Origin: Trueperaceae bacterium
GTDB taxonomy: Bacteria; Deinococcota; Deinococci; Deinococcales; Trueperaceae
Assembly (NCBI GenBank): GCA_965215565.1
Contig: CBDCDZ010000004.1
Location: 1,888,001-1,952,000 of the forward strand
DNA length: 64,000 nucleotides
Direction: 5' to 3'
The position numbers and the translations under genes were made by a program. The notes under the pieces are model-generated. The model saw only the letters and a program-made list of their open reading frames with translations. It made no database searches and was not told the DNA's origin. Positions 1-15,125 of the stretch are shown piece by piece; within the stretch, counting starts at the first letter, position 1; every line of letters starts with the position of its first letter.

Positions 1-745
1 AAGCATCTTCGCAGCCGAGCCTCTGAACCTCGTTCCAGAGGGCAGCTAAGTCGGTCATAGGATCGCTGCGCTGCGCCCGCTTGAAGTCCACCGAAGCGAT
101 GATGCGCGCTTGTGTGTCCGACCAGAGCACGTTATACGTGGTGGCGCTACCGTGACAGAGGGCGATAGGGGCGTCGGTGAGCAGCGGACGAGTGCGCTCG
201 AGCGCTCCGGTCAGCACCGCCGTGTCGATGGTGTCGTCATTGGTAGTCAAGGGTAGCAGACGCCGCCAAGCGGTCTCGAGGTGCGTCTCTAAACGCTCCC
301 CTCGCGCCTCCGGCAACGCCAAATCGCCCGCCCGCTCGAAGCGGATACGGTGAATTAGGCGCAGCGCGTGTCCCCAAGAGCGCACCGCTTGCTCGCGCTG
401 CGCCGCGTTAAGGCGGGGCCAAGCCTCAGCCAAGGTGGGCTCGGGCAAGTACTGTGTGAGGAGATATGGATACTCGAGCCGTGAACGGGTCGTGTCAGCG
501 CGAATAAGGGGGGGCGTTAAGTTGGGCAGAAGGCTGATCGCGGCGACGTAGCGCTCGACGCGGGGTTCTTGGTCGCGCTGATTGATCCATAAGACGTGTT
601 CTTCCCCGCTTGCCAGCAGCAGATAATAGGCAGCGTTGAGAGGGGTGGTCTCGAGTCGGTGCCACGCCAAAAGCGGCTCATCGATCACGCACGCCAGTCG
701 GTTGGGCGGTAACACGCTATGTGATGGCGCTACATCTGTAAGCAT
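1..745 (-). CDS. Aminoglycoside phosphotransferase (APH/choline kinase-like) family protein, 3' end runs off the window
   Basis: Hand translation from ATG at 745 (RBS-like AAAGGGAG upstream) is open to position 1. It contains ALCHGSATTYNVLW...ASVDF...DPMTDLA, the APH-type HGDxxxxN / DF / DP..DL layout. Confidence 0.65.
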   Translation of the reverse strand, partial: MLTDVAPSHSVLPPNRLACVIDEPLLAWHRLETTPLNAAYYLLLASGEEHVLWINQRDQEPRVERYVAAISLLPNLTPPLIRADTTRSRLEYPYLLTQYLPEPTLAEAWPRLNAAQREQAVRSWGHALRLIHRIRFERAGDLALPEARGERLETHLETAWRRLLPLTTNDDTIDTAVLTGALERTRPLLTDAPIALCHGSATTYNVLWSDTQARIIASVDFKRAQRSDPMTDLAALWNEVQRLGCEDA

Positions 746-1168
746 TGCTCCCTTTCTCTCGCTTGCCCCTTAATCTTATCTTAATTATTCTACACTATAC
801 ACGTGTTGAGATGCTGAGAAAGTAAAATAGCCGACGACCCAGCGAAGTCGACTTTGAGCCTCTAAGATTCACTTTTTACTCTGATCGCAGTGGTTTCTAC
901 AGCGTCATGCGACCTAGTAGTGAAGGCTCTGTCCTACACCACGACATTCGTCACCAGACGATCTTTAACAAATACACATGAATTTCATCAATGTACCTGA
1001 GATTACGTTATTGTGGATGCGCTTTCACACCGGAGCCGGAAGAACAATTCTCGGTATAACGGGAAAAGAAGTAAAGAACTTCGTCCGTTTTCCTCGTTCT
1101 ACCTACACATCTACCCCTTCTCACCTGCTCGAGCGCGCACGGCTACCGAAAAAGCGCTAGAGGAGCGA

Positions 1169-4728
<3,560 letters not shown>

Positions 4729-4732
<4 letters not shown>

Positions 4733-5253
4733 ATCCTCTTGACCTCGTCTTCGTTGTCGTTATCGCCGCCACTACGGTCTGCGCCGCGCAGCGCAAACTC
4801 GCCGGTCTGCTCGTCGGGCTAGGCGGCGTCCTCTTACTCAAGCCGCTGCTGCTCCTCGCGCAGTTCAGCCCTTTCGTCGGACTCACGCTCGCGCTCGCCT
4901 TCGGCTTAGCACTAGGCTTCGCAAGTCGCTACTTGCCCCCGCAGACGAAGCTACGTGCGCCGCTACGCACGCTCGCGGGCGGCGTCGGCGGCTTCGTGCT
5001 GGGTTGCACGCTCGTCCTCGCCGCGACGACCGCCTTACCTGTAACGAGAGACATCAACGACGCCATCGTCTATCCTCCCAGGGACGCGCCGCTGAGCGCC
5101 ACCTTGCAACGCTCACACCTCATCGGCTTGGGGCGTGATATTCTGCTCTATCCGCTCCTAGACCGTGAAGGTCTCATCTCACCGGAGCGGCGGGCGGTAC
5201 TGCGCTCTTTGCACGGCTTGCTCGTGGCGCGTCCCCCCTGGGAGCGAGGTTAG
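4729..5253 (+). CDS. Membrane protein, CvpA (colicin V production)-like
   Basis: Starts MNPLDLVFVVVI, has several hydrophobic helices and a GG..GF..G segment, and is translationally coupled to pheT. Confidence 0.5.
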
Positions 5254-5274
5254 TTGGCGTATCGAACTCGAGGA

Positions 5275-5580
5275 AGCGCAAGCCCTGAAGGGTTGCAAGC
5301 TCTTTAGGTGACGAGGTGGAGGGCTCTAGGTTTCGTTCGTTCGGTATTTCTCGGAGTGAATGTCACGCTAGAGATAGATGCAGGGAACGGTCTAGCGGTT
5401 ATAGGCTGAAACAGTGATCAACTAAGTTGGAATAGCGCAAGCATCATCTCTGAATGTATACGTGAGACTAGCGCTTCATCGGCTTAGACTGTTTCTGACC
5501 AGACGATACCTGCTACAAAACGCGAAATTAAGTCTGCGGGCCCCTCCTGAGACGAACCCCTCACTCGAGGCACTGGGTTC
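5275..5580 (+). ncRNA. glmS ribozyme (GlcN6P-activated), core interrupted by a ~195-nt insertion
   Basis: AGCGCA (5275), P1 stem 5284-5292/5300-5308, TGACGAGG (5309-5316), P2 5' TGGAGGG. The matching 3' half GTCTGCGGG-CCCCTCC is at 5532-5547. Candidate P3 5548-5551/5560-5563 and P3.1 GAACCC/GGGTTC. Located upstream of glmS. Confidence 0.75.
5437..5515 (+). repeat. ~76-bp hairpin repeat family, copy 1 (inside the glmS ribozyme)
   Basis: GCAAGCATCATC...GACGATACCTGCTA, with the upstream flank TTGGAATAGC shared with the copies at 22418 and 60029. Confidence 0.7.
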
Positions 5581-5831
5581 ACCCCGAACGACAAAAAGTA
5601 AAAAAGACGACGGCGCTGAAAGGTTAAGCGTCACGGAGCGCCGCCTGTTGTCAGGTCTACACTTGAGGCGTAGGTTTGCCTATCGTTGGTAACTGTCAAC
5701 TGACGATTCAAGCTCCTCCATAGTGAGTTTGCAGGGCCGGAGCACGAACGAACCGTGGTCCTCAACCGCTAAAGCTGCCTCAATCCTGCAGATTTGGGCA
5801 GGAAATATTTAGAGCTATAAGGGTTGAGCGA

Positions 5832-5906
5832 AGTAGGTATCATCACCCCATAGGGTGCGACACGCTTCAACCCCCACGACTAGCTCGAACGAGATGATAC
5901 CTACTA
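5832..5906 (+). repeat. ~76-bp hairpin repeat family, copy 2 (abuts the glmS RBS)
   Basis: Perfect 13-bp inverted repeat AGTAGGTATCATC / GATGATACCTACT. Confidence 0.75.
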
Positions 5907-5919
5907 TTAAGGAGTTTCT

Positions 5920-7755
5920 ATGTGCGGCATTGTGGGTTACGTTGGGCACCGCCAAGCAACCGAGGTGATCATGGACGGGCTGAGGAGGCTCGAGTACCGC
6001 GGCTACGACTCAGCCGGTGTGGTGGTATCACCGCGCGGCAGCAGCGACGCGCACCTCAACCACCTCGACATGGTGAAAAAGGCGGGCAAGCTTAAAAATC
6101 TGGAGGAAGCCCTCGAAACGCGCCCCCTCAAAGGAACACTAGGGTTAGGTCACACCCGCTGGGCGACGCACGGCAGACCCAATGACACGAACGCGCACCC
6201 GCACCTCTCCGAAGACGGTAAGCTCGCGGTGATTCATAACGGCATCATTGAAAACTACGTGCCGCTCAGGGAGAGGCTCATCGAGCAGGGACACGTCTTC
6301 GTGTCAGAGACCGACACCGAAGTGATGGTCCACCTCATCGAAGAGTACTACGAGGGCGACCTAGTCGCCGCCGTGCGCACGGCGCTGAGCCAAGTCACGG
6401 GCGCTTACGCGCTCGTCGTCTCGCACGCCGAGCACGACCTCATCGTGGCGGCGCGGGCGACGAGTCCAATGGTCCTGGGGCTCGGCGAGGGGGAGAACTT
6501 CGTCGCGAGTGACGTGCCTGCGCTGCTCCCCTACACAAGAGAAGTAGTCTTTTTGCACGACGGCGACATGGCGCTCATCGGCGAAGACGGTTTCACCGTT
6601 ACAAATTTCGCTGGCGAGACCCTGGAACGCGAAGTCTCTACCGTCGACTGGGACGCGGAGGCGGCTGAGAAAGCGGGCTTCGAACACTATATGCTCAAAG
6701 AGATTTACGAGCAGCCTACCGTGCTGCAAAATACCTTTGGCAGCCGCTTCGCCGCGAACGGCACCGATGTGCAGCTAGACCTCAATCTCGATCCACTCGC
6801 TTTTGACCGCGTCGTCATTACAGCGGCGGGCACCGCGTACTACTCGGGCATGGTCGGCGAATACCTCATCGAGAAGCTCGCCCGCTTACCTGTGGACGTC
6901 GAAATCGCCAGCGAGTTTCGCTACCGCGAACCTGTTTTAGACGAGCGAACCCTCTGCATCGTTGTCTCGCAGTCGGGCGAAACCATCGACACATTAGAGG
7001 CGCTCCGCGAGGCGCAGCGTCAGGGTGCTAAGTCTCTAGCCGTACTCAACGTTAAAGGGTCATCCATCAGCCGCGAGGTTGACGACACGCTCTATATTCA
7101 CGCCGGACCCGAGATCGGCGTGGCGAGTACAAAGGCGTATACCGCAATGATCGCCGCGTTTGAACTCGTCGCGATCTGGTTAGGACGCGCGCGCGGCACG
7201 CTGAATGATGCGGACGCTGCTGCGCTCATCCACGCGCTACGTCAGACACCGGGATTGCTCGAGGACGCCTTAGAGGAGCGCGAGCACATCGCCCAAGTAG
7301 CCGAGAGATTCAAGGGGCATAGCGACTATCTCTTCTTAGGACGCAGCATCAACTTTCCTACTGCCTTAGAGGGAGCCCTCAAGCTCAAAGAAATCTCCTA
7401 CATCCACGCCGAAGCTTACGCGACGGGCGAAATGAAGCATGGTCCGATTGCGCTTATTGATAGCGCAATGCCCGTTGTCGCCGTTGCAACAGCTTCCGCA
7501 CTTTACGAAAAAACGATCTCCAACTTGCAAGAGGTCAAAGCTAGAGACGGTATCGTTATCGCCCTCGCCAACCCTAACGACACGCAAATTGGGGCGCACG
7601 CCGACGTTGTCATCCGCGCGCCGCAAACCCACGAACTCGTCTCACCACTCATAAACGTTGTCGCGATGCAGCTCCTCGCTTATGAAACAGCCGCGCGACT
7701 GGGTCGCGATGTCGATCAGCCACGTAATTTAGCAAAATCGGTAACTGTCGAATAG
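5920..7755 (+). CDS. glmS: Glutamine--fructose-6-phosphate aminotransferase
   Basis: MCGIVG N-terminus, GHTRWATHG, SQSGET, and C-terminal DQPRNLAKSVTVE. Confidence 0.99.
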   Translation: MCGIVGYVGHRQATEVIMDGLRRLEYRGYDSAGVVVSPRGSSDAHLNHLDMVKKAGKLKNLEEALETRPLKGTLGLGHTRWATHGRPNDTNAHPHLSEDGKLAVIHNGIIENYVPLRERLIEQGHVFVSETDTEVMVHLIEEYYEGDLVAAVRTALSQVTGAYALVVSHAEHDLIVAARATSPMVLGLGEGENFVASDVPALLPYTREVVFLHDGDMALIGEDGFTVTNFAGETLEREVSTVDWDAEAAEKAGFEHYMLKEIYEQPTVLQNTFGSRFAANGTDVQLDLNLDPLAFDRVVITAAGTAYYSGMVGEYLIEKLARLPVDVEIASEFRYREPVLDERTLCIVVSQSGETIDTLEALREAQRQGAKSLAVLNVKGSSISREVDDTLYIHAGPEIGVASTKAYTAMIAAFELVAIWLGRARGTLNDADAAALIHALRQTPGLLEDALEEREHIAQVAERFKGHSDYLFLGRSINFPTALEGALKLKEISYIHAEAYATGEMKHGPIALIDSAMPVVAVATASALYEKTISNLQEVKARDGIVIALANPNDTQIGAHADVVIRAPQTHELVSPLINVVAMQLLAYETAARLGRDVDQPRNLAKSVTVE

Positions 7756-7780
7756 TAGACTTGTTGTGCAACAAAAATAT

Positions 7781-7847
7781 TGTGGAGAAATAAAAAAGTT
7801 CTGGACTAATAAAAAAGTCCTAGACTTTGGCGAGAAAGTTCTGGACT
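7781..7847 (+). mobile_element. Tn7-like right end at attTn7
   Basis: Terminal TGTGGAGA begins 25 bp after the glmS stop. Three 19-bp TnsB-site-like repeats: 7789-7807 AATAAAAAAGTTCTGGACT, 7808-7826 AATAAAAAAGTCCTAGACT, 7829-7847 GGCGAGAAAGTTCTGGACT. The 5-bp flank is AATAT. Confidence 0.9.
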
Positions 7848-7929
7848 TTTGCTCTTGAGTCTCTTAGAATAGATTAGAGCAGCTACTCGTTACAGTAGCG
7901 ACATCTCCGACATCGACTGCGAAGCAAAC

Positions 7930-7962
7930 TGAGCGAGCCTAAGCTCGCTCAATTCTTTGTTT
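7930..7962 (+). terminator. Terminator-like hairpin upstream of tnsA
   Basis: TGAGCGAGC-ctaa-GCTCGCTCA followed by a T-rich tract. Confidence 0.45.
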
Positions 7963-7973
7963 TGAGGAGTCGT

Positions 7974-8522
7974 ATGGCAAGGCGCAACCGAGGTCTCGCC
8001 AAGCAAGCTATCCAAAGACGTTGGAAAGAGGGACGAGGTCAAGGCGAAGGCGAATTCTACCAACCTTGGCTCACCGTTCGCGACGTCCCTTCGCGGGGCC
8101 AGTCCAACCGTCCCTTGGGTTGGAAGACGAAACGGATTCATCACCTCCTGAGTCTGAACGAATTGCGCTACTTCTACCTGCTCGAGTGGGCAACACAGGT
8201 CGCCGACATCCGCGAGCAGTACCCGCTGTGGCCTTTGGAGGAGACTCAGCGCATCGCCGCCGAACTCGGTTTCAAGCACCCCGCCCCGCCAGGCGGCGAT
8301 TACATGATCATGACCTCCGACTTCCTCATCGTCCTGGACGATAGGCGCTGGGTCGTGCGCACTGTCAAGGAAGCAAGTGAACTTGACAATGAGCGGGTCT
8401 TGCAGAAGCTCGAGATCGAGCGGGTGTACTGGCTCGAGTGGGGCGTGGACTGGGGTATCGTCATCGCTGAGGATATTCCGCTGGACTTGGTCGCTAACAT
8501 CCAGTGGTTGCACCCGCACTGA
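7974..8522 (+). pseudogene. tnsA: TnsA endonuclease, C-terminally truncated
   Basis: GRGQGEGEFYQPWLTVRDVPSRG, HHLLSLNE, DIREQYPL, MTSDFL and KLEIERVYW motifs. GAGGAG RBS before ATG 7974. It ends abruptly where TnsB-like sequence begins in another frame. Confidence 0.88.
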
Positions 8523-10098
8523 GCGCGTGTTGTACATGAGTAGCGAAGCCGACGCGGTCGTCGTCATTGAGGTTAAAGACAAGGGTCGCGCCCAACCTGT
8601 GTGGCTCGAGCTGTCCGGTCTCCGAGCTGAACTTGATGGTGGCAATGTCCATGTGCTCAGACACGACCCCTGGCTCGCCCTGCCGCGCGATGAGAAAGAA
8701 TTGATCCAGGCAGAGCGTGAAGGGCGGGACCGCGCCTGGAATATACTCGAGCCCATCGTCCAAGCCGGGACGGACATGTACGACCGCAAGGTGCGTGGTC
8801 GGCTCATCGCGCAAGTGGTCGAGAGCGGACTCGCAGTGAAAGAAACTGTCTACACCCTCCTCTACCGCTACTGGAAGGGCGGGCAGACCCTCCATGCGCT
8901 GATCCCGCGCTACGAGAAGTCCGGCGGTTACAGCCAGGACCGCACGAAGGACGTCGACCACAGCAAGCGGCGCGGTCACCCCACGCTCGTTAAAAAGGTG
9001 ACTGGGCGAGTCATGGGCATCAATGTCGACGAGGACGTCCGCAAGAAGCTCGTGAAGATCGGCGAAGAGTTCTTTGAGAGCGACGAGGGGCTGACCGAGG
9101 AAGAAGCGTTCCGGCGGGGGCTCAGCAAGTACTTCCGTGATGGCTACGATGTCCTGCCGAACGGCGTCCGAGTCCCTATCCTCCTGCCCGACGACCAGCT
9201 CCCTACTCTGGCGCAGTTCAAGTACTGGTACGGCAAAGCCAAAGACCCCGACCGCGCCCTTCGCAAGCGCGAAGGCGAGCGTGCCTATTACCTCAAGCAC
9301 CGTCCCATGCGCGGCGACTCCTCCGCCACCGCCGACCGACCGGGAGCCGTCTACTAAGTGGACGCGACCATCGGCGACGTTTATCTGGTGTCCTCACGCG
9401 ACCCGCGCCTCATCATCGGGCGTCCCGTCGTTTACGTCGTCATCGACCAGTTCAGCCGCCTCGTCGTCGGCTTCACGGTGGGGCTCGAGGGTCCGAGCTG
9501 GATGGCCGCCGTCTTAGCGTTTGAAAATGTTGCGACGGACAAGGTCACTTTCTGCCGTTCGCTCGACATATCCATCACCCCCGATGTCTGGCCGGTGGAG
9601 CACTTCCCGGAGTCCGTATTGGGAGACGGCGGCGAGCTGAAGAGCACTTATTCGGACGCTTTGGCGGAAGGGTTCGGCGTCAACGCCGCGAACACGCCGC
9701 CCTACCGCGCGGACTGGAAGGCCATCGTCGAGCGGCACTTCGGGCTGACGAACAAGCGCGTCCTCCACTGGCTGCCTGCCGCGGTGCGCCGGACCGTGCG
9801 CGGCGACAAGGACTACCGTCTGGAGAGCGCCCTCACCCTCACCGACCTGCGCAAAATCCTCGCCCTCTGCTTCGTCGAGCACAACCAATATGCGCTCATC
9901 AAGGACTACCCGAAAGACCCCGATATGGTGCGGTCGCGGGTGCGGACCAACCCGCTGGAGCTGTGGCACTGGGGCATCGAGCACCGCAGTGGCGCGCTCA
10001 GATACTTCGCCCCCGAGGTGGTGCGCCGCAAGCTGCTGCCGAACGCGAAGGCGACCATGACCCCGCGTGGCCTGCGCTACGGCGGCCAGTACTACGAG
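8517..10098 (+). pseudogene. tnsB: TnsB DDE transposase, start lost, internal nonsense codon, C-terminus lost
   Basis: LYRYWKGGQ, PTLAQFKYWY, then in-frame TAA at 9355-9357 within Y*VDAT (normally YQIDAT), followed by IGRPVVY..ID..SR, DGGE and KAIVERHF. It switches into tnsC sequence after GGQYY. Confidence 0.88.
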
Positions 10099-11583
10099 GT
10101 ACGCCGTCTCCGAGAACGACACCTGGCGCGACAACCCCCTCATCGAGGCGCTGCCCGGCATCCTGACGGACGACGAGTTCGCGCGGGCGGTCCGCTTCTT
10201 CCCGCCGCAGAGCCCGGAGCTGCGCGGGTACCCCAAACACCTGCGGCTCATGTACATCCAGCGTGCCTTGCAGTTCTTCACACCGATGGAGAACCATCTG
10301 CTGTTGCAGCAGCGGGTAGCCCGCGTTATCCGCGACGGCTACGTCGCTCGTAATCCGGTTAAGGACCTCGGCTGGAACCGCCTCCACCGGCAGCTCGACG
10401 AGCTGGCAGAAAAGCTCAAGTACGGCGTCGCGCCCCACGAGCCGCCTTCGGCGCTGGGCTTCTCCCTCATCGGCATCGGCGGCATCGGCAAGACCATCGG
10501 GATGAACGCCATTATGCGGACCTACCCGCAGATGCTCATCCACCGCTCTTACACGGATAGTACGGGGCGCGAGCACCTCCTCACGCGCTCGCAGATCGTG
10601 TTCCTCAAGCTCGACTGCCCGAACGACGGGACGCTCAAGTCGCTGTGCCTGAACTTCTTCCAGGCGGTGGACCGCATGACCGGCTGCACGCGCTACTATT
10701 GCGATTACGGCTTCAAGGGCAGCAAGCAGCGCACCGCCCGCCACGGAGATGCTGCCCGACATGGCCCGCGTCGCCGCCTTGCAGTCCATCGGGCTCTTGA
10801 TCATCGACGAGATTCAGTACCTCAGCAAGCAGAAGAGCGGCGGGCAGGAGCAGATGCTCCACTGGTTCACCGAACTGGTCAATACTATCAAGCTGCCCGT
10901 CATCCCTGATCGGCACGCCACGCGCCGAGGAGATTCTCAACGCCGCCTTCTGGCAGATGCGCCGCAACGCGGGGCAGGGCGAGAGCGACTGGAAGCCCAT
11001 GATGCAGGGCGGGGAGTGGCACCGCTTCTTGCGTTCCCTGTGGCGCTACCAGTTCGTTAAGAAGCCTTTAGAACTCGAAACCGGCGTAGACGCCAGGGGC
11101 AATCAAATGAAGTGGGTCCCGCAGGACCTGAACGACGCCCTCTACGAGGAATCGCAGGGCATCGCCGACTTCGCTGTGAAGATGTTCATGATCGCCCAGG
11201 AGCGTGCCATCAACACCGGGCTGGAGCAGCTCACCCCGGACCTCGTCCGAGTCGTCGCGGCGGACGCGTTCGGCAAGGCGCGGGAGATCATCCAGGCGAT
11301 CAGGACCAACGACCCGAAGATACTCGCCAAGGTGGACGATGTGAAATTCGACGCCGAACGCGCCCGCGAGGAGGTGAACAAAAAGAAGAAACCTGTCCCT
11401 ACCCATTCACCTCAAGCGCCTGCCAATCACGCTGCGTCGCCCGCGCCTCTACGCTCCGAAGACGCAGCGCTGACCCCGGTGCTGACCACGCTGGCCGAGA
11501 ACACCCTCACGCGCGGCGTGAGTGGCGGCGAGGCGCTGAGCGAGGCGGGTCACGTCCGCTCCCCGCTCGAGTTCGGGGTGTAG
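10099..11583 (+). pseudogene. tnsC: TnsC AAA+ ATPase, N-terminus lost, two frameshifts (~10740, ~10905)
   Basis: NPLIEALP, Walker A GIGGIGKT, LKLDCP.DG, Walker B LIIDEIQ and LYEESQGI are spread over three ORF-track frames. Confidence 0.88.
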
Positions 11584-11584
11584 C

Positions 11585-13151
11585 GTGCTCACCTTCTTCC
11601 CGTCTTCCTACGAAGACGAGCTACTTTATAGCCTCCTCGCCCGCTACGCTCGGCTGACCGGCTACAGCAACCTCAAAACGAACCTAAACGACCTGTTCAG
11701 GCGCACGACGGTAACAGCGGTCGCCGACCTGCCGACCCACCTCGGCGCACTCGCCGAACGACTAGCTCCTCTCGGCGGGCTGAGCGCTGATGAGATGATC
11801 GACTGCTACACCTTGTTCCCCTACTACGCCGCCTTCCAGCCCCTAGAACGCCGCCGGAGGGTCCGAGAGGCGATGCGAGGGGATGGCTACCCACACGGGC
11901 TCCTTGGGCTCATGGCGGCGCGGGGTCCTGCCCTGACTGAACGCTTTGCGCTACTGCCCGGTCTGCGCAAGCGGGGAGCGCAAACACTACGAGGAAGCCT
12001 ACTGGCACCGCTCGCATCAGCTTCCCGGCGTGCTCGCTTGTGAGGCTCACGGGACTTGGCTGGAAGAGAGCGAGGTCGTGCTGCCCGCGCCGGTGACGCG
12101 CCACGCCTTCGTCGCGGCGGAGACGGCGGTCCCGTATGACGGGTTCGCCAGGCGGCTGTCACCGGCGCAAAACGGACCGCTCATTCTCGACCTGACACGA
12201 CGTGCCCAGGCCTTAGTGACAGGCTCGAGCCCCGAATTCGATCTGACCGCTCTGCGCTCACGCTACATGAACGCCCTCGCCGAGCGGAAGCTGGCGACGT
12301 ACAGCGGTCGTCTGCGCCTCGAGGCGTTGCGGCAAGACATCGCGACGTTCCTGCCTGAGAACTTGCGTGACCGGCTGGGCGTGCCCCCTGTCGAAAGCTG
12401 GCTGCTGCGGCTCCTCCGTAAGCCCCGCACGGCGGCACATTCCCTACATCACCTGCTTTTGCAAATCTTCTTAGACACCGACCACGACGTACTAGAAACG
12501 CCCATCCGGTTCTTCGGGAAGGGCCCCTGGCCCTGCCTCAACCGCGCCGCCTCGCACTACGGCGAACGACGTGCGGTGCGCAAGCAAGCTGCGGCGCTCG
12601 GTTTGCCCTACGAACGTCCGGGCAGTCGGGCGGAGAACGCAAAAACGTCGGAGAAAGTTCGCTCCAAACCTGAGGAGGTTGCCTTCGCAGAGCGGCGAGC
12701 GGCGTGCCGGAGTACCTGGCTCGAGATGAAGCACAAGCGCCCCAACGCCTCGACCAAGGACCTACGCGCGGACCTGCCTGGCGTCTATATCTGGCTGTAC
12801 CGCAACGATAAAGCCTGGCTCGACGAGAATAAGCCCACGCGCCGTGTGCCTCGAGCGAGCGCCCCCCGCGTCGACTGGGCGCGGCGAGACGCCGACCTCG
12901 CCCGCCTCTTACGCAGGGCAGCCCGACAGGTGCTCGCGGAGGCGAAACCTGTACGTGTGACGCGCGGTCGGCTTGGGCGCATGATCGGTCATGCGGGGAT
13001 GCTGGATAAGAACCTGGACAAGCTGCCGATTTGCAAAGCGGCGTTGGACAAACTCACAGAGTCTCGCGAAGCGTTCGCGGTGAGGCGCATTCGCTCGGCG
13101 TCCTCCCGCTTGCACGAGTCCGGCAGGCAGGTCCCGCGCTGGCAGTTCGTG
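11585..13151 (+). pseudogene. tnsD: TnsD/TniQ target-selector, frameshift ~11940, internal deletion ~12565, truncated
   Basis: FFPSSYEDELLYSLLARY, TLFPYY, zinc-finger RYCPVC...YWHRSHQLPGVLACEAH, GPWPCLN, YIWLYRNDKAWL and RVDWARRD. Confidence 0.85.
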
Positions 13152-13529
13152 GGGTGCCCACTTCAACTTCGGTCCGAGCCGCCTTAAACGACCACTTCGT
13201 TTTGTGAGGATTTGGAATACGTGCCAGTCCGCTCGGTTCATAACGTCAAAGACTTGCTCTATAAAGGCATCTGGTATGTCTCTGTGAAACAGGTCGGACA
13301 TCGAGTTGACGAAAATGCGCCTCGGCTTGCGCCAGCGTAGCGGTTTCTCAAGACGTTCCTGCCAGAGCTTGAGGTCGAAGCCCTATTCGTAAGGGTGATT
13401 AGGTACACCTCGGAAGCGCTCGGCAAAGCGGAGGGCGTAGCAGTGGTCGCAGCCGGGGCTGACCTGGGTGCAACCTGTGGTTGGGTTCCAGGTGGCGTCG
13501 GTCCATTCGATTGAAGAGTTGATGCTCAT
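13149..13529 (-). pseudogene. DUF5131 (phage Gp37/Gp68-like radical SAM) protein, 5' fragment
   Basis: [32 protein letters not shown]...IFVNSMSDLFH...FQILTKR. In-frame TAG at 13385-13383, and fused tail-to-tail to tnsD. Confidence 0.85.
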
Positions 13530-13987
13530 TGAGTGCTACCTGAAAATATGTGCGTCAACTCATCCGGAAAGATTACTTCTGCACGACTACAAAAGTGGTT
13601 TTTGTCAAACGTAGGATGTTGATTTAGCATCTTTAGCTCAGCATCTTCGCATGATAGGAGCGGAAGATTTATCAGGTCTAAGTCGTTCTGCCTGCTATGC
13701 CTACGAAGAGAACCGTTTTTATGGCTCAGCTCAAAGGCAAAATGTATCATTTGTGCGTCCTCGAATCCTGCGTAGACAATAGGCGGATAGCAAATCGCAG
13801 AGAAGCCGTTAACCTCTGCGAGTGCCTGTATAAAAGTCGGAACTACAGCTTTGAACATGTATTTTTGATTTCTTGGTCCTCGCTTCAAATACCAATCAAG
13901 TGTATTTTGCCACTCCTCACTATCGTTTCAGTCTCGCCATCCTTCTAAGTAGTCTTTTATCTGATTTTTGATAGTATTCCTAACCTC
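13526..13987 (-). pseudogene. Low-GC gene fragment translationally coupled to DUF5131, cut by IS4
   Basis: ATGA overlap with the DUF5131 start. The frame continues up to the IS end with one in-frame TGA. AT-rich. Confidence 0.45.
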
Positions 13988-13988
13988 A

Positions 13989-15125
13989 CTACGGGGACAA
14001 AAGATTGAGACAAAGCTCAAGACTAACTTTAGCGGGCATAGGACCGGCTAGGGTGGCTGAACGCAGGACCTCGAGCCCGCGCTTGAAGTAGCTTTTGGGT
14101 AGGTAACCGTGCTTTTTGGTTTTGAGAGGATAGTGCTTGTAATACCACTCACCTACAAGATGGGCCCAAGCGAAAGCGATAGCTAAGAGGGTTAGCAGCT
14201 TGTTGAAGCGCTCGGGTTGAAGCGTATGCGTACCTTCTAAGTTAAAGCCGCGCGACTTCAAGGCTGAGAAGAGCGTTTCTATCTGCCACCTTTGGGCATA
14301 ACGCGCTAAGGCTTTGTCGGCTTTGACGTTGCAGGCTAACACAAGCAACTCACGCTCGGAGGTGCGCGTCACAGCGAGACGAACACGTAACCCGAGCAGC
14401 CAGCAGCGTTTAGGACAGACATAGACTTCTCCCGATCGGAGGTCAGTGTAGCGCTGCTGCGCCGAACGGGTTGTACCCTTAGAGCCCATCAAGCTGTTGT
14501 TACGCACGCGCATGACGAAGGTGAGTTGGCGTGCCCTGAGTCCTCTGAACCAGTCCTCGCCAATGAACTCACGATCAGCCACTACGCTATCTATTTTTTC
14601 AACTGCTAGCACGCTCAGTAATCTGTCAATTAGCTCTAAGCGCTCCGGCGTGTCGCTATTGCCCTTTTTAGCCAGCAACGTCCACAGCACAGGAAAAGCT
14701 AACCCTTTGTACGCAACACCCAGCATCAAAATATTGACCTCACAGCAACCGAGTGACCAAGTTGTTCTGTCAAGCGTTATCACTAAGCCGGTTTTGACGG
14801 GGAGCAGCGCAAGCATCAACGTTGCGAGCGCTTCACCTTCGAGCTTTACCTCTCGAAAGAAGCGCTTGATGCGTCTCTCGTTCGACTCAATGAGTACCAT
14901 AGGGTTTAGAGCGCTCGCTACCGTGCTCAAGCTCACGCCCCGCACTATAATAACTGCCATAATAAACCTCGCCATGAAATCCAGTCGCGCACCGTGTAAA
15001 GGCATAGCAACTTGGATTTCGTTCCTCAGTTCGTTACACTTGTACTTAAGTCAGTCCGTTGTCTTTGTTTGTGTTCACACCTCAATCATGGCACAGACTG
15101 GCTTCTCTCTCTTTTGTCCCGGTAG
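13989..15125 (-). mobile_element. IS4-family insertion sequence (transposase ORF 15005-13989)
   Basis: DDE motifs LDRTTW, VADREF and YAQRWQIETLFSALKSRGFNLE. TIRs CTACGGGGACAAAAGA (13989-14004) and TCTTTTGTCCCGGTAG (15110-15125) match 15/16. No target duplication is visible. Confidence 0.9.

Follow-up and report, generated by a model that had tools for sequence, protein, structure and literature searches.

In the leader of a Trueperaceae glmS gene, the two halves of a glmS ribozyme core stand on either side of an insert of ~190 nt, which raises the question of whether a mobile element broke the core or the insert is part of the ribozyme. The core of glmS ribozymes is a drug target, and it is regarded as almost unvarying. 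The original prediction, made on the window (the whole 64,000-nt stretch of DNA analyzed here), left two options: either a mobile insertion had split the core and removed GlcN6P feedback control of glmS, or the insert folds out and the RNA is a natural expanded ribozyme.

The ribozyme lies within the glmS leader, 645 nt upstream of the gene recognized by TIGR01135, and its site is 21 nt past the stop of the upstream gene. A scan of 4600-6000 found no consensus promoter and no terminator.

5910-5914, + strand: ribosome-binding site of glmS
5920-7755, + strand: glmS, glutamine-fructose-6-phosphate transaminase, 611 aa (TIGR01135, 818.8 bits; cut-off 418)

Contigs from two runs of one sample (possibly the window's own source) cover 5307-5556 with zero differences, which argues against an assembly artefact. 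A hydrophobic ORF of 174 aa (4729-5253), with no Pfam or NCBIfam match, is located between pheT and the ribozyme, and a coding sequence resembling it precedes the ribozyme in many relatives. The same leader holds another low-copy repeat (5706-5807), which has a few genomic matches at 77-85% and, judged by eye, is absent from the leader of G001, a genome of the same genus. The position directly past glmS is the customary Tn7 target, and a Tn7-like element (7762-13187) begins 7 nt past the glmS stop; it has a TGT end, short repeats at ~7790-7850, and TnsA-like, AAA, TniQ and TnsD genes, several of which seem frame-split.

Every motif named by the original prediction was found where it had been placed: in the 5′ half, the cleavage-site motif (5275-5280), GACGAGG (5310-5316) and the end of the P2 5′ strand (5323); the 3′ half of the core (5523-5547); the hairpin closed by 5324-5329/5368-5373, which is the extra stem A listed below; and the complementarity of 5380-5384 to 5509-5513, which belongs to extra stem B. 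Its list of elements was nevertheless incomplete, P0 (5267-5272/5564-5569), P3 and P3.1 having been overlooked, and the usual UUAUCG strand, which it had called unrecognizable, has an identifiable replacement at 5517-5525. From 5′ to 3′, the elements are:

5267-5272, + strand: P0 5′ strand, upstream of the cleavage site, partner 5564-5569
5275-5276, + strand: predicted self-cleavage site, A5275 (A-1)/G5276 (G1), from homology to RF00234
5277-5283, + strand: P2.2 5′ strand (C2, G3, C4, A5, G7), partner 5534-5538, from complementarity
5284-5308, + strand: P1 hairpin, two-sided changes at 5 of 7 pairs, pair probability ~0.8
5310-5316, + strand: GACGAGG, comprising the P2.1 5′ strand (C5312, G5313, A5314) and the general-base guanine equivalent G5316
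5318-5323, + strand: P2 5′ strand, partner 5542-5547, all six pairs paired in 81 of 81 sequences, the search pattern having fixed the 3′ strand
5324-5373, + strand: extra stem A, directly after P2, family-wide, from covariation
5374-5376, + strand: junction AUA between stems A and B
5377-5515, + strand: extra stem B (5377-5384 with 5509-5515) and its enlarged loop
5516-5525, + strand: purine-rich junction (AAA, 5517-5519), P2.1 3′ strand (G5522, C5523, G5524) and A5525
5526-5532, + strand: short linker, in the place of an optional stem C of other family members
5533-5547, + strand: P2.2 3′ strand, ligand-contact guanine equivalent G5539 (G57; Tte G65) and P2 3′ strand
5548-5563, + strand: P3 hairpin, 100% paired, two-sided changes at 2 of 4 pairs; its loop (5554-5559) is the P3.1 5′ strand
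5564-5569, + strand: P0 3′ strand, at the canonical P4 start
5575-5580, + strand: P3.1 3′ strand, from complementarity

The active-site set of A(-1)G1, P1, P2, P2.2 and both active-site guanines is present in the window, and the ligand-contact guanine equivalent (G5539) is retained there and in the 27 protein-found leaders described below; the general-base numbering at 5310-5316 is our own mapping from PMC7125110 and PMC5311495. The P2.2 pairs are each complementary in 77-81 of 81 sequences, with the sixth canonical pair mismatched in 80 of 81, and P2.1 keeps two pairs in all 81 with an A-G third pair in 80 of 81; much of this conservation of P2, P2.1 and P2.2 was built into our search patterns, and the 5533-5547 block itself served as the pattern in several locus searches. 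P3.1 has at least five Watson-Crick pairs in 69 of 80 sequences, compared with 7 of 80 in a control placed 60 nt further on. In 70 of 72 sequences, no more than 16 nt separate P3 from the P3.1 3′ strand, which leaves no room for P4, a helix that the original prediction had likewise not seen. The place of stem C holds at least 20 nt in 57 of 81 sequences, 56 of which fold there at -3 kcal/mol or lower.

The strand at 5516-5525 stands in for canonical UUAUCGA and is present in 108 of 108 sequences. Under a register for positions 41-42 that is our own assignment, the canonical A42 position is C or U in 106 of 108 sequences, the canonical U43 position is G in 106 of 108, and the canonical U41 position is a purine family-wide (A in 53 and G in 55 of 108). 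Two related sequences, L024 and L159, retain the canonical bases A42 and U43 when read in that register and differ at 5′ core positions 4-6, which is possibly a coupled change.

Alignment to the glmS leaders of relatives had been named beforehand as a check, and it showed the match to exceed chance. Leaders were picked by the GlmS protein alone, giving 35 regions, three of them at a contig edge; among the 32 usable leaders, 27 carry the same halves in the same order and in the same split design upstream of glmS. No ribozyme was found within 1.5 kb upstream of the GlmS match in L034 (G028), L025 (G020), L041 (G013), L029 (G009) or L046 (G017), and L034, which keeps only a decayed 5′ half, shows what ribozyme loss looks like. 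Of 128 family genomes, 94 contain the 3′ core motif, among them 63 of the 79 that are of good quality. A scan of the species collection with the 3′ core pattern yielded 75 loci, mostly titled Trueperaceae or uncultured bacterium; 73 also have the 5′ core and the junction, a contig end truncates another, and the last is a chance match (Streptomyces). Among the 80 of 90 metagenome matches that were listed, 54 have both halves, two are contig-end cuts, 20 are one unrelated sequence and four are other chance matches; with the 27 distinct sequences drawn from these, the collection totals 108. The junction pattern was found in 45 of 95 genomes of the family; outside it, 1 of 205 genomes (G264) gave a match, in unrelated sequence. 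The unpublished genome G035 contributes a single row to these counts, and none of the conclusions rests on it.

In 80 of 81 sequences, the core is followed downstream by a GlmS start. The MITE (described below) that the window's insert carries is absent from 105 of the 108 distinct sequences, and the core of all 105 is split at the same place; the distance from P2 to the P2.1 3′ strand is 29-142 nt in these 105 and 181, 191 and 216 nt in the MITE carriers. In L018 (G006), the junction and the P2.1 strand occur in three tandem copies. Four genomes (G144, G149, G022 and G304) have two core-pattern or R1 (see below) matches each, both of those in G144 being full loci (L118 and L123); the double matches could reflect duplication or bin contamination.

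These leaders and the covariation of the stems support the option of a natural expanded ribozyme whose insert folds out. The option of a mobile insertion that split the core and removed feedback is not supported, since the 105 MITE-free sequences are split alike, the stem whose loop holds the MITE was there before it, and the core has been nearly invariant since the MITE arrived. By this comparison, a mobile insertion is not the cause of the core split. The insert had also been treated as a single unit; it is structured, as predicted, but it consists of an ancestral module and a later MITE passenger. The relatives indicate that about 70 nt of the ~190-nt insert, namely the two stems and the purine-rich junction, are ancestral to Trueperaceae generally.

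Covariation was assessed in 35 short members chosen by length from the 108, with the window's genus left out. Two-sided changes were observed at 6 of 7 pairs of stem A (95.5% paired; slid registers pair less), 4 of 4 pairs of stem B (95.6% paired) and 4 of 6 pairs of P0 (85.7% of cells paired). For the named structure as a whole, 92.6% of cells are paired, compared with 36-49% in slid registers. Two-sided changes occupy 191 cells, compared with 56 in shuffles, a test that is inflated by related sequences, so the slid-register control weighs more. P2, P2.1 and P2.2 are nearly invariant and therefore provide no covariation support. The alignments show family-wide covariation for stems A and B, P0, P3 and P3.1. 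The junction after the best-pairing stem A is AUA in 87, ACA in 7 and GCA in 5 of 108 sequences. Stem B is usually 10-59 nt long (85 anchored sequences); its base is imperfect in the window's genus, and position 5516 is C, compared with G in 93 of 108 sequences.

Nested folding, for which pseudoknots are outside what the method can model, gave pair probabilities of 0.92 for stem B (five pairs), ~0.8 for P1, 0.44-0.46 for stem A, 0.44-0.72 for P2 and, in the window fold, 0.45 for P0; stem B and P1 are thus well supported by folding, and stem A, P2 and P0 moderately. The insert is predicted to pair internally (74.5 nt inside vs. 0.9 outside). The folding energy of 5270-5560 is no better than that of shuffled sequences (z = -1.01).

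The Rfam glmS model, a search with which had been proposed as a check, aligned the ribozyme at the window site with the insert in place (RF00234; 19.5 bits, E 0.59) but fell short of the gathering cut-off of 37, and a search of the window's genome gave no hit genome-wide. In 36 family genomes, RF00234 gave a single hit, the best family member, at 25.6 bits and under the cut-off; two sister families were each hit in 6 of 6 genomes, and two others in 0 of 6. A family model, R1, was built from 35 short family members with the window's genus left out. R1 scored 58.5 bits at the window (E 5.5e-15; the next-best place in the window scored 12.3 bits) and 107.4 bits for G001. In its alignment, stem A corresponds to 5324-5373 and 139 nt are passed over at stem B; the 5′ part of the model aligned to a look-alike motif at 5295, off the true cleavage site. 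R1 found nothing in five family leaders without the core motif. In the two sister families, it recovered 12 of the 12 loci that Rfam also detects, with scores of 18-44 bits, and the variant is thereby linked to RF00234. Rfam misses the family form, so surveys undercount it: a single genome of 36 was hit, below the cut-off, whereas the motif was present in 94 of 128. An Rfam search of 1-15000, at E up to 1, returned no match to a group I intron or other structured RNA over the insert. We also rejected the idea that the insert is an intron whose self-splicing would restore the canonical strand, given no Rfam match and stems that covary across the family and vary in length.

In the canonical ribozyme, GlcN6P is the cofactor, cleavage produces a 5′-OH end and RNase J1 degrades the message (PMC3997798); the P4 internal loop braces P2.1, and P4 is dispensable in vitro (PMC11602151). 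PMC7125110 gives rates in the canonical minimal core of 1.1e-3 per s for U43G, 3.6e-4 for A42C and 5.9e-4 for A42U vs. 6.4e-2, i.e., 57- to 177-fold slower, and all three respond to GlcN6P with a KM of 2.2-2.8 mM (the source-data numbering is the paper's plus 6, an offset that we infer). Changes at 42 and 43 are thus harmful singly in the canonical core, which argues against an easy transfer of the canonical mechanism.

Alternatively, the family RNA could self-cleave with a rebuilt pocket that uses another cofactor or only divalent metal, and so be no simple GlcN6P sensor. Positions 41, 42 and 43 of the pocket differ family-wide, and the laboratory cofactor-independent variant described in PMC5311495 has adenosines at Tte 49, 51 and 65, which are positions 41, 43 and 57 by our own mapping. 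The same paper, however, names the change at 65 as the most important one for the loss of GlcN6P use, and the equivalent G5539 is kept. Moreover, G at 43 is also found in Rfam-positive loci of sister family f2, U43G alone remains GlcN6P-responsive (PMC7125110), and the downstream gene is GlmS in nearly every sequence (80/81). A change of cofactor is accordingly considered unlikely.

The copy of a repeat family that the original prediction had seen in the insert is real, and a second copy lies in the same leader.

5393-5515, + strand: MITE-like repeat, 123 nt, in the stem B loop (HMM of genomic copies, 70.6 bits)
5822-5909, + strand: second, decayed copy of the MITE family (E 4e-7)

The repeat has 561 hits in the window's genome (G000), 289 of them near-full copies; it is ~110-125 nt long, with short inverted ends and TA-rich flanks, and ~60% of 203 parsed copies are immediately flanked by TA. 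Only 1 of the 289 copies is inside a long ORF, although long ORFs make up 68% of the contig. MITEs are likewise short, non-coding, intergenic and present in high copy with inverted ends. The TA flanks recall IS630/Tc1-type elements, which we take as a lead only. The repeat family was detected in 5 of the 41 genomes searched. No autonomous partner or transposase was found by paired-end scans in G000 or around eight copies in G005 and G020. An IS4-family transposase gene is encoded on the minus strand at 13989-15005 (NF033591, 226.9 bits); this element has its own inverted ends, which differ from those of the MITE, and it was rejected as the partner. The whole insert as one mobile element was also rejected, as only 5393-5515 is repeated. 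In two copies elsewhere, L126:2220-2412 (G020) and L129:1917-2055 (G005), the last 24 nt are in tandem two or three times. The copy at 5822-5909 forms an inverted repeat right upstream of the glmS ribosome-binding site, as in the G001 leader too, and could affect glmS translation or decay.

Within the ribozyme, the MITE is present in 3 of 108 sequences, which are all three genomes of the genus (G000, G001 and G002), always in the stem B loop and in the same orientation. The three copies have 3, 5 and 5 rare states in common per pair, compared with a mean below 1 for other copies, a level matched by 48, 6 and 3 of 578 controls; this sharing fits one ancestral insertion. We infer a single arrival of the MITE, in an ancestor of the genus, and its persistence there as a tolerated passenger. 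Since the insertion, the core has remained identical at 101-102 of 103 positions among the three species, while the MITE copies are 71-75% identical and the first 130 nt of glmS are identical at 102-107 positions (78-82%). P1 and inner stem A have changed in sequence and length with pairing retained. G001 and G002 keep a separate 8-nt host strand past the MITE end. It is missing in the window's genome, where the right end of the MITE is itself the stem B 3′ strand and pairs with 5380-5384.

The insertion might instead have crippled the ribozyme in the window's genus, leaving it slow or misfolded, with feedback weakened or lost and the core as a remnant. The inserts of the carriers exceed those of all 105 other sequences, the base of stem B is imperfect, and the window's genome has lost the host strand that G001 and G002 keep. 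Against this stand the 1-2 differences in 103 core bases among three species over a time in which the MITE drifted by 25-29%, and the altered yet still paired P1 and inner stem A, which are unexpected of a remnant. We consider a crippled ribozyme improbable; an almost invariant core beside a drifting MITE suggests that the insertion has probably not abolished GlcN6P feedback.

Least probable by our judgment, and quite doubtful, is an RNA that does not self-cleave efficiently and instead binds a ligand or protein, or serves between the upstream operon and glmS as an element for processing or stability: the 21-nt gap to the upstream stop, the lack of consensus promoter or terminator in 4600-6000, a P0 that would hold the 5′ piece bound, and two homology-predicted Fusobacterium glmS RNAs that were inactive when tested (PMC10099748) all fit it, but neither the cleavage dinucleotide nor the general-base guanine has been lost, and the ‘radiovictrix’ ribozyme is cited as self-cleaving in that same source.

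The locus is therefore best read, with reasonable though not full confidence and from sequence comparison, as a Trueperaceae-type glmS ribozyme with two extra core stems and a MITE in the loop of the second, likely still cleaving the glmS message at high GlcN6P. In such a ribozyme, stems A and B would project away from the double pseudoknot, so that the two core halves could meet as usual, and the conserved purines of the AUA and AAA junctions may replace the P4 internal loop that braces P2.1 in Bacillus. GlcN6P-dependent cleavage at 5275/5276 would leave a 5′-OH end, and the product would be degraded by RNase J, which is encoded in the window's genome (544 bits, cut-off 400), resulting in less GlmS. 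Through P0, the 5′ piece may stay attached to the product until displaced. A bolder version, to which we give little credence, holds that the supporting domain has moved from P4 into the core as a multi-way junction with invariant adenosines bracing P2.1, that the rebuilt pocket has altered which cofactor drives cleavage, and that stem B is an expansion port with a strand supplied by a transposon end.

The 108 sequences define fixed junction bases and show a site within the core that takes from 10 to over 150 nt. Support of P2.1 without P4 and the grafting of aptamers into stem B both become testable, and the MITE is a dated natural experiment in tolerance to insertion within the core.

With respect to known systems, McCown, Roth and Breaker (2011, RNA 17:728) reportedly described Deinococcus-Thermus variants with additional catalytic-core stems and changed supporting substructures. 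This architecture may already be shown in McCown 2011 and 2012, Cochrane 2007 and Ferre-D'Amare 2010 with their supplements. PMC10099748, citing McCown 2011, describes a ‘radiovictrix’ glmS ribozyme, its genus given as ‘Thermoanaerobacter’, as unusual in sequence and self-cleaving at 50 C; the accessible part of PMC5473149 holds nothing further on glmS variants. Searches of open-access text brought up no account of a MITE within a glmS ribozyme, nor of the form shared across the family. What is known is thus the unusual self-cleaving ‘radiovictrix’ ribozyme cited in print, and what is new is the MITE passenger and the description from 108 sequences. The Truepera radiovictrix-type ribozyme belongs to the same family as the one described here, a likeness drawn from its description in the citing text and not stem by stem. 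L067 and L098, titled Truepera radiovictrix MAG (titles perhaps loose), have the same architecture. Unlike the Truepera radiovictrix type, only the window's genus (3/108) has the MITE in stem B.

The canonical RF00234 ribozyme (Bacillus, Thermoanaerobacter type) shares with the Trueperaceae form the position upstream of glmS, the cleavage dinucleotide, P1, P2, P2.1, P2.2, the general-base and ligand-contact guanines, P3 and P3.1. The Trueperaceae form differs in the 29-216 nt between P2 and the P2.1 3′ strand, the optional third stem, P0, the missing P4, the changed bases 41-43 and a score below the cut-off; the RF00234 model has no place for stems A and B. The glmS ribozymes of sister families f2 and f5 (L001-L011, L013) are without stems A and B and have a longer structure after P3, whereas the A5-U53 version of P2.2 is common to both and to the Trueperaceae form, the f2 loci have G at 43 too, and several f2 and f5 loci could, judged by eye, form a short P0.
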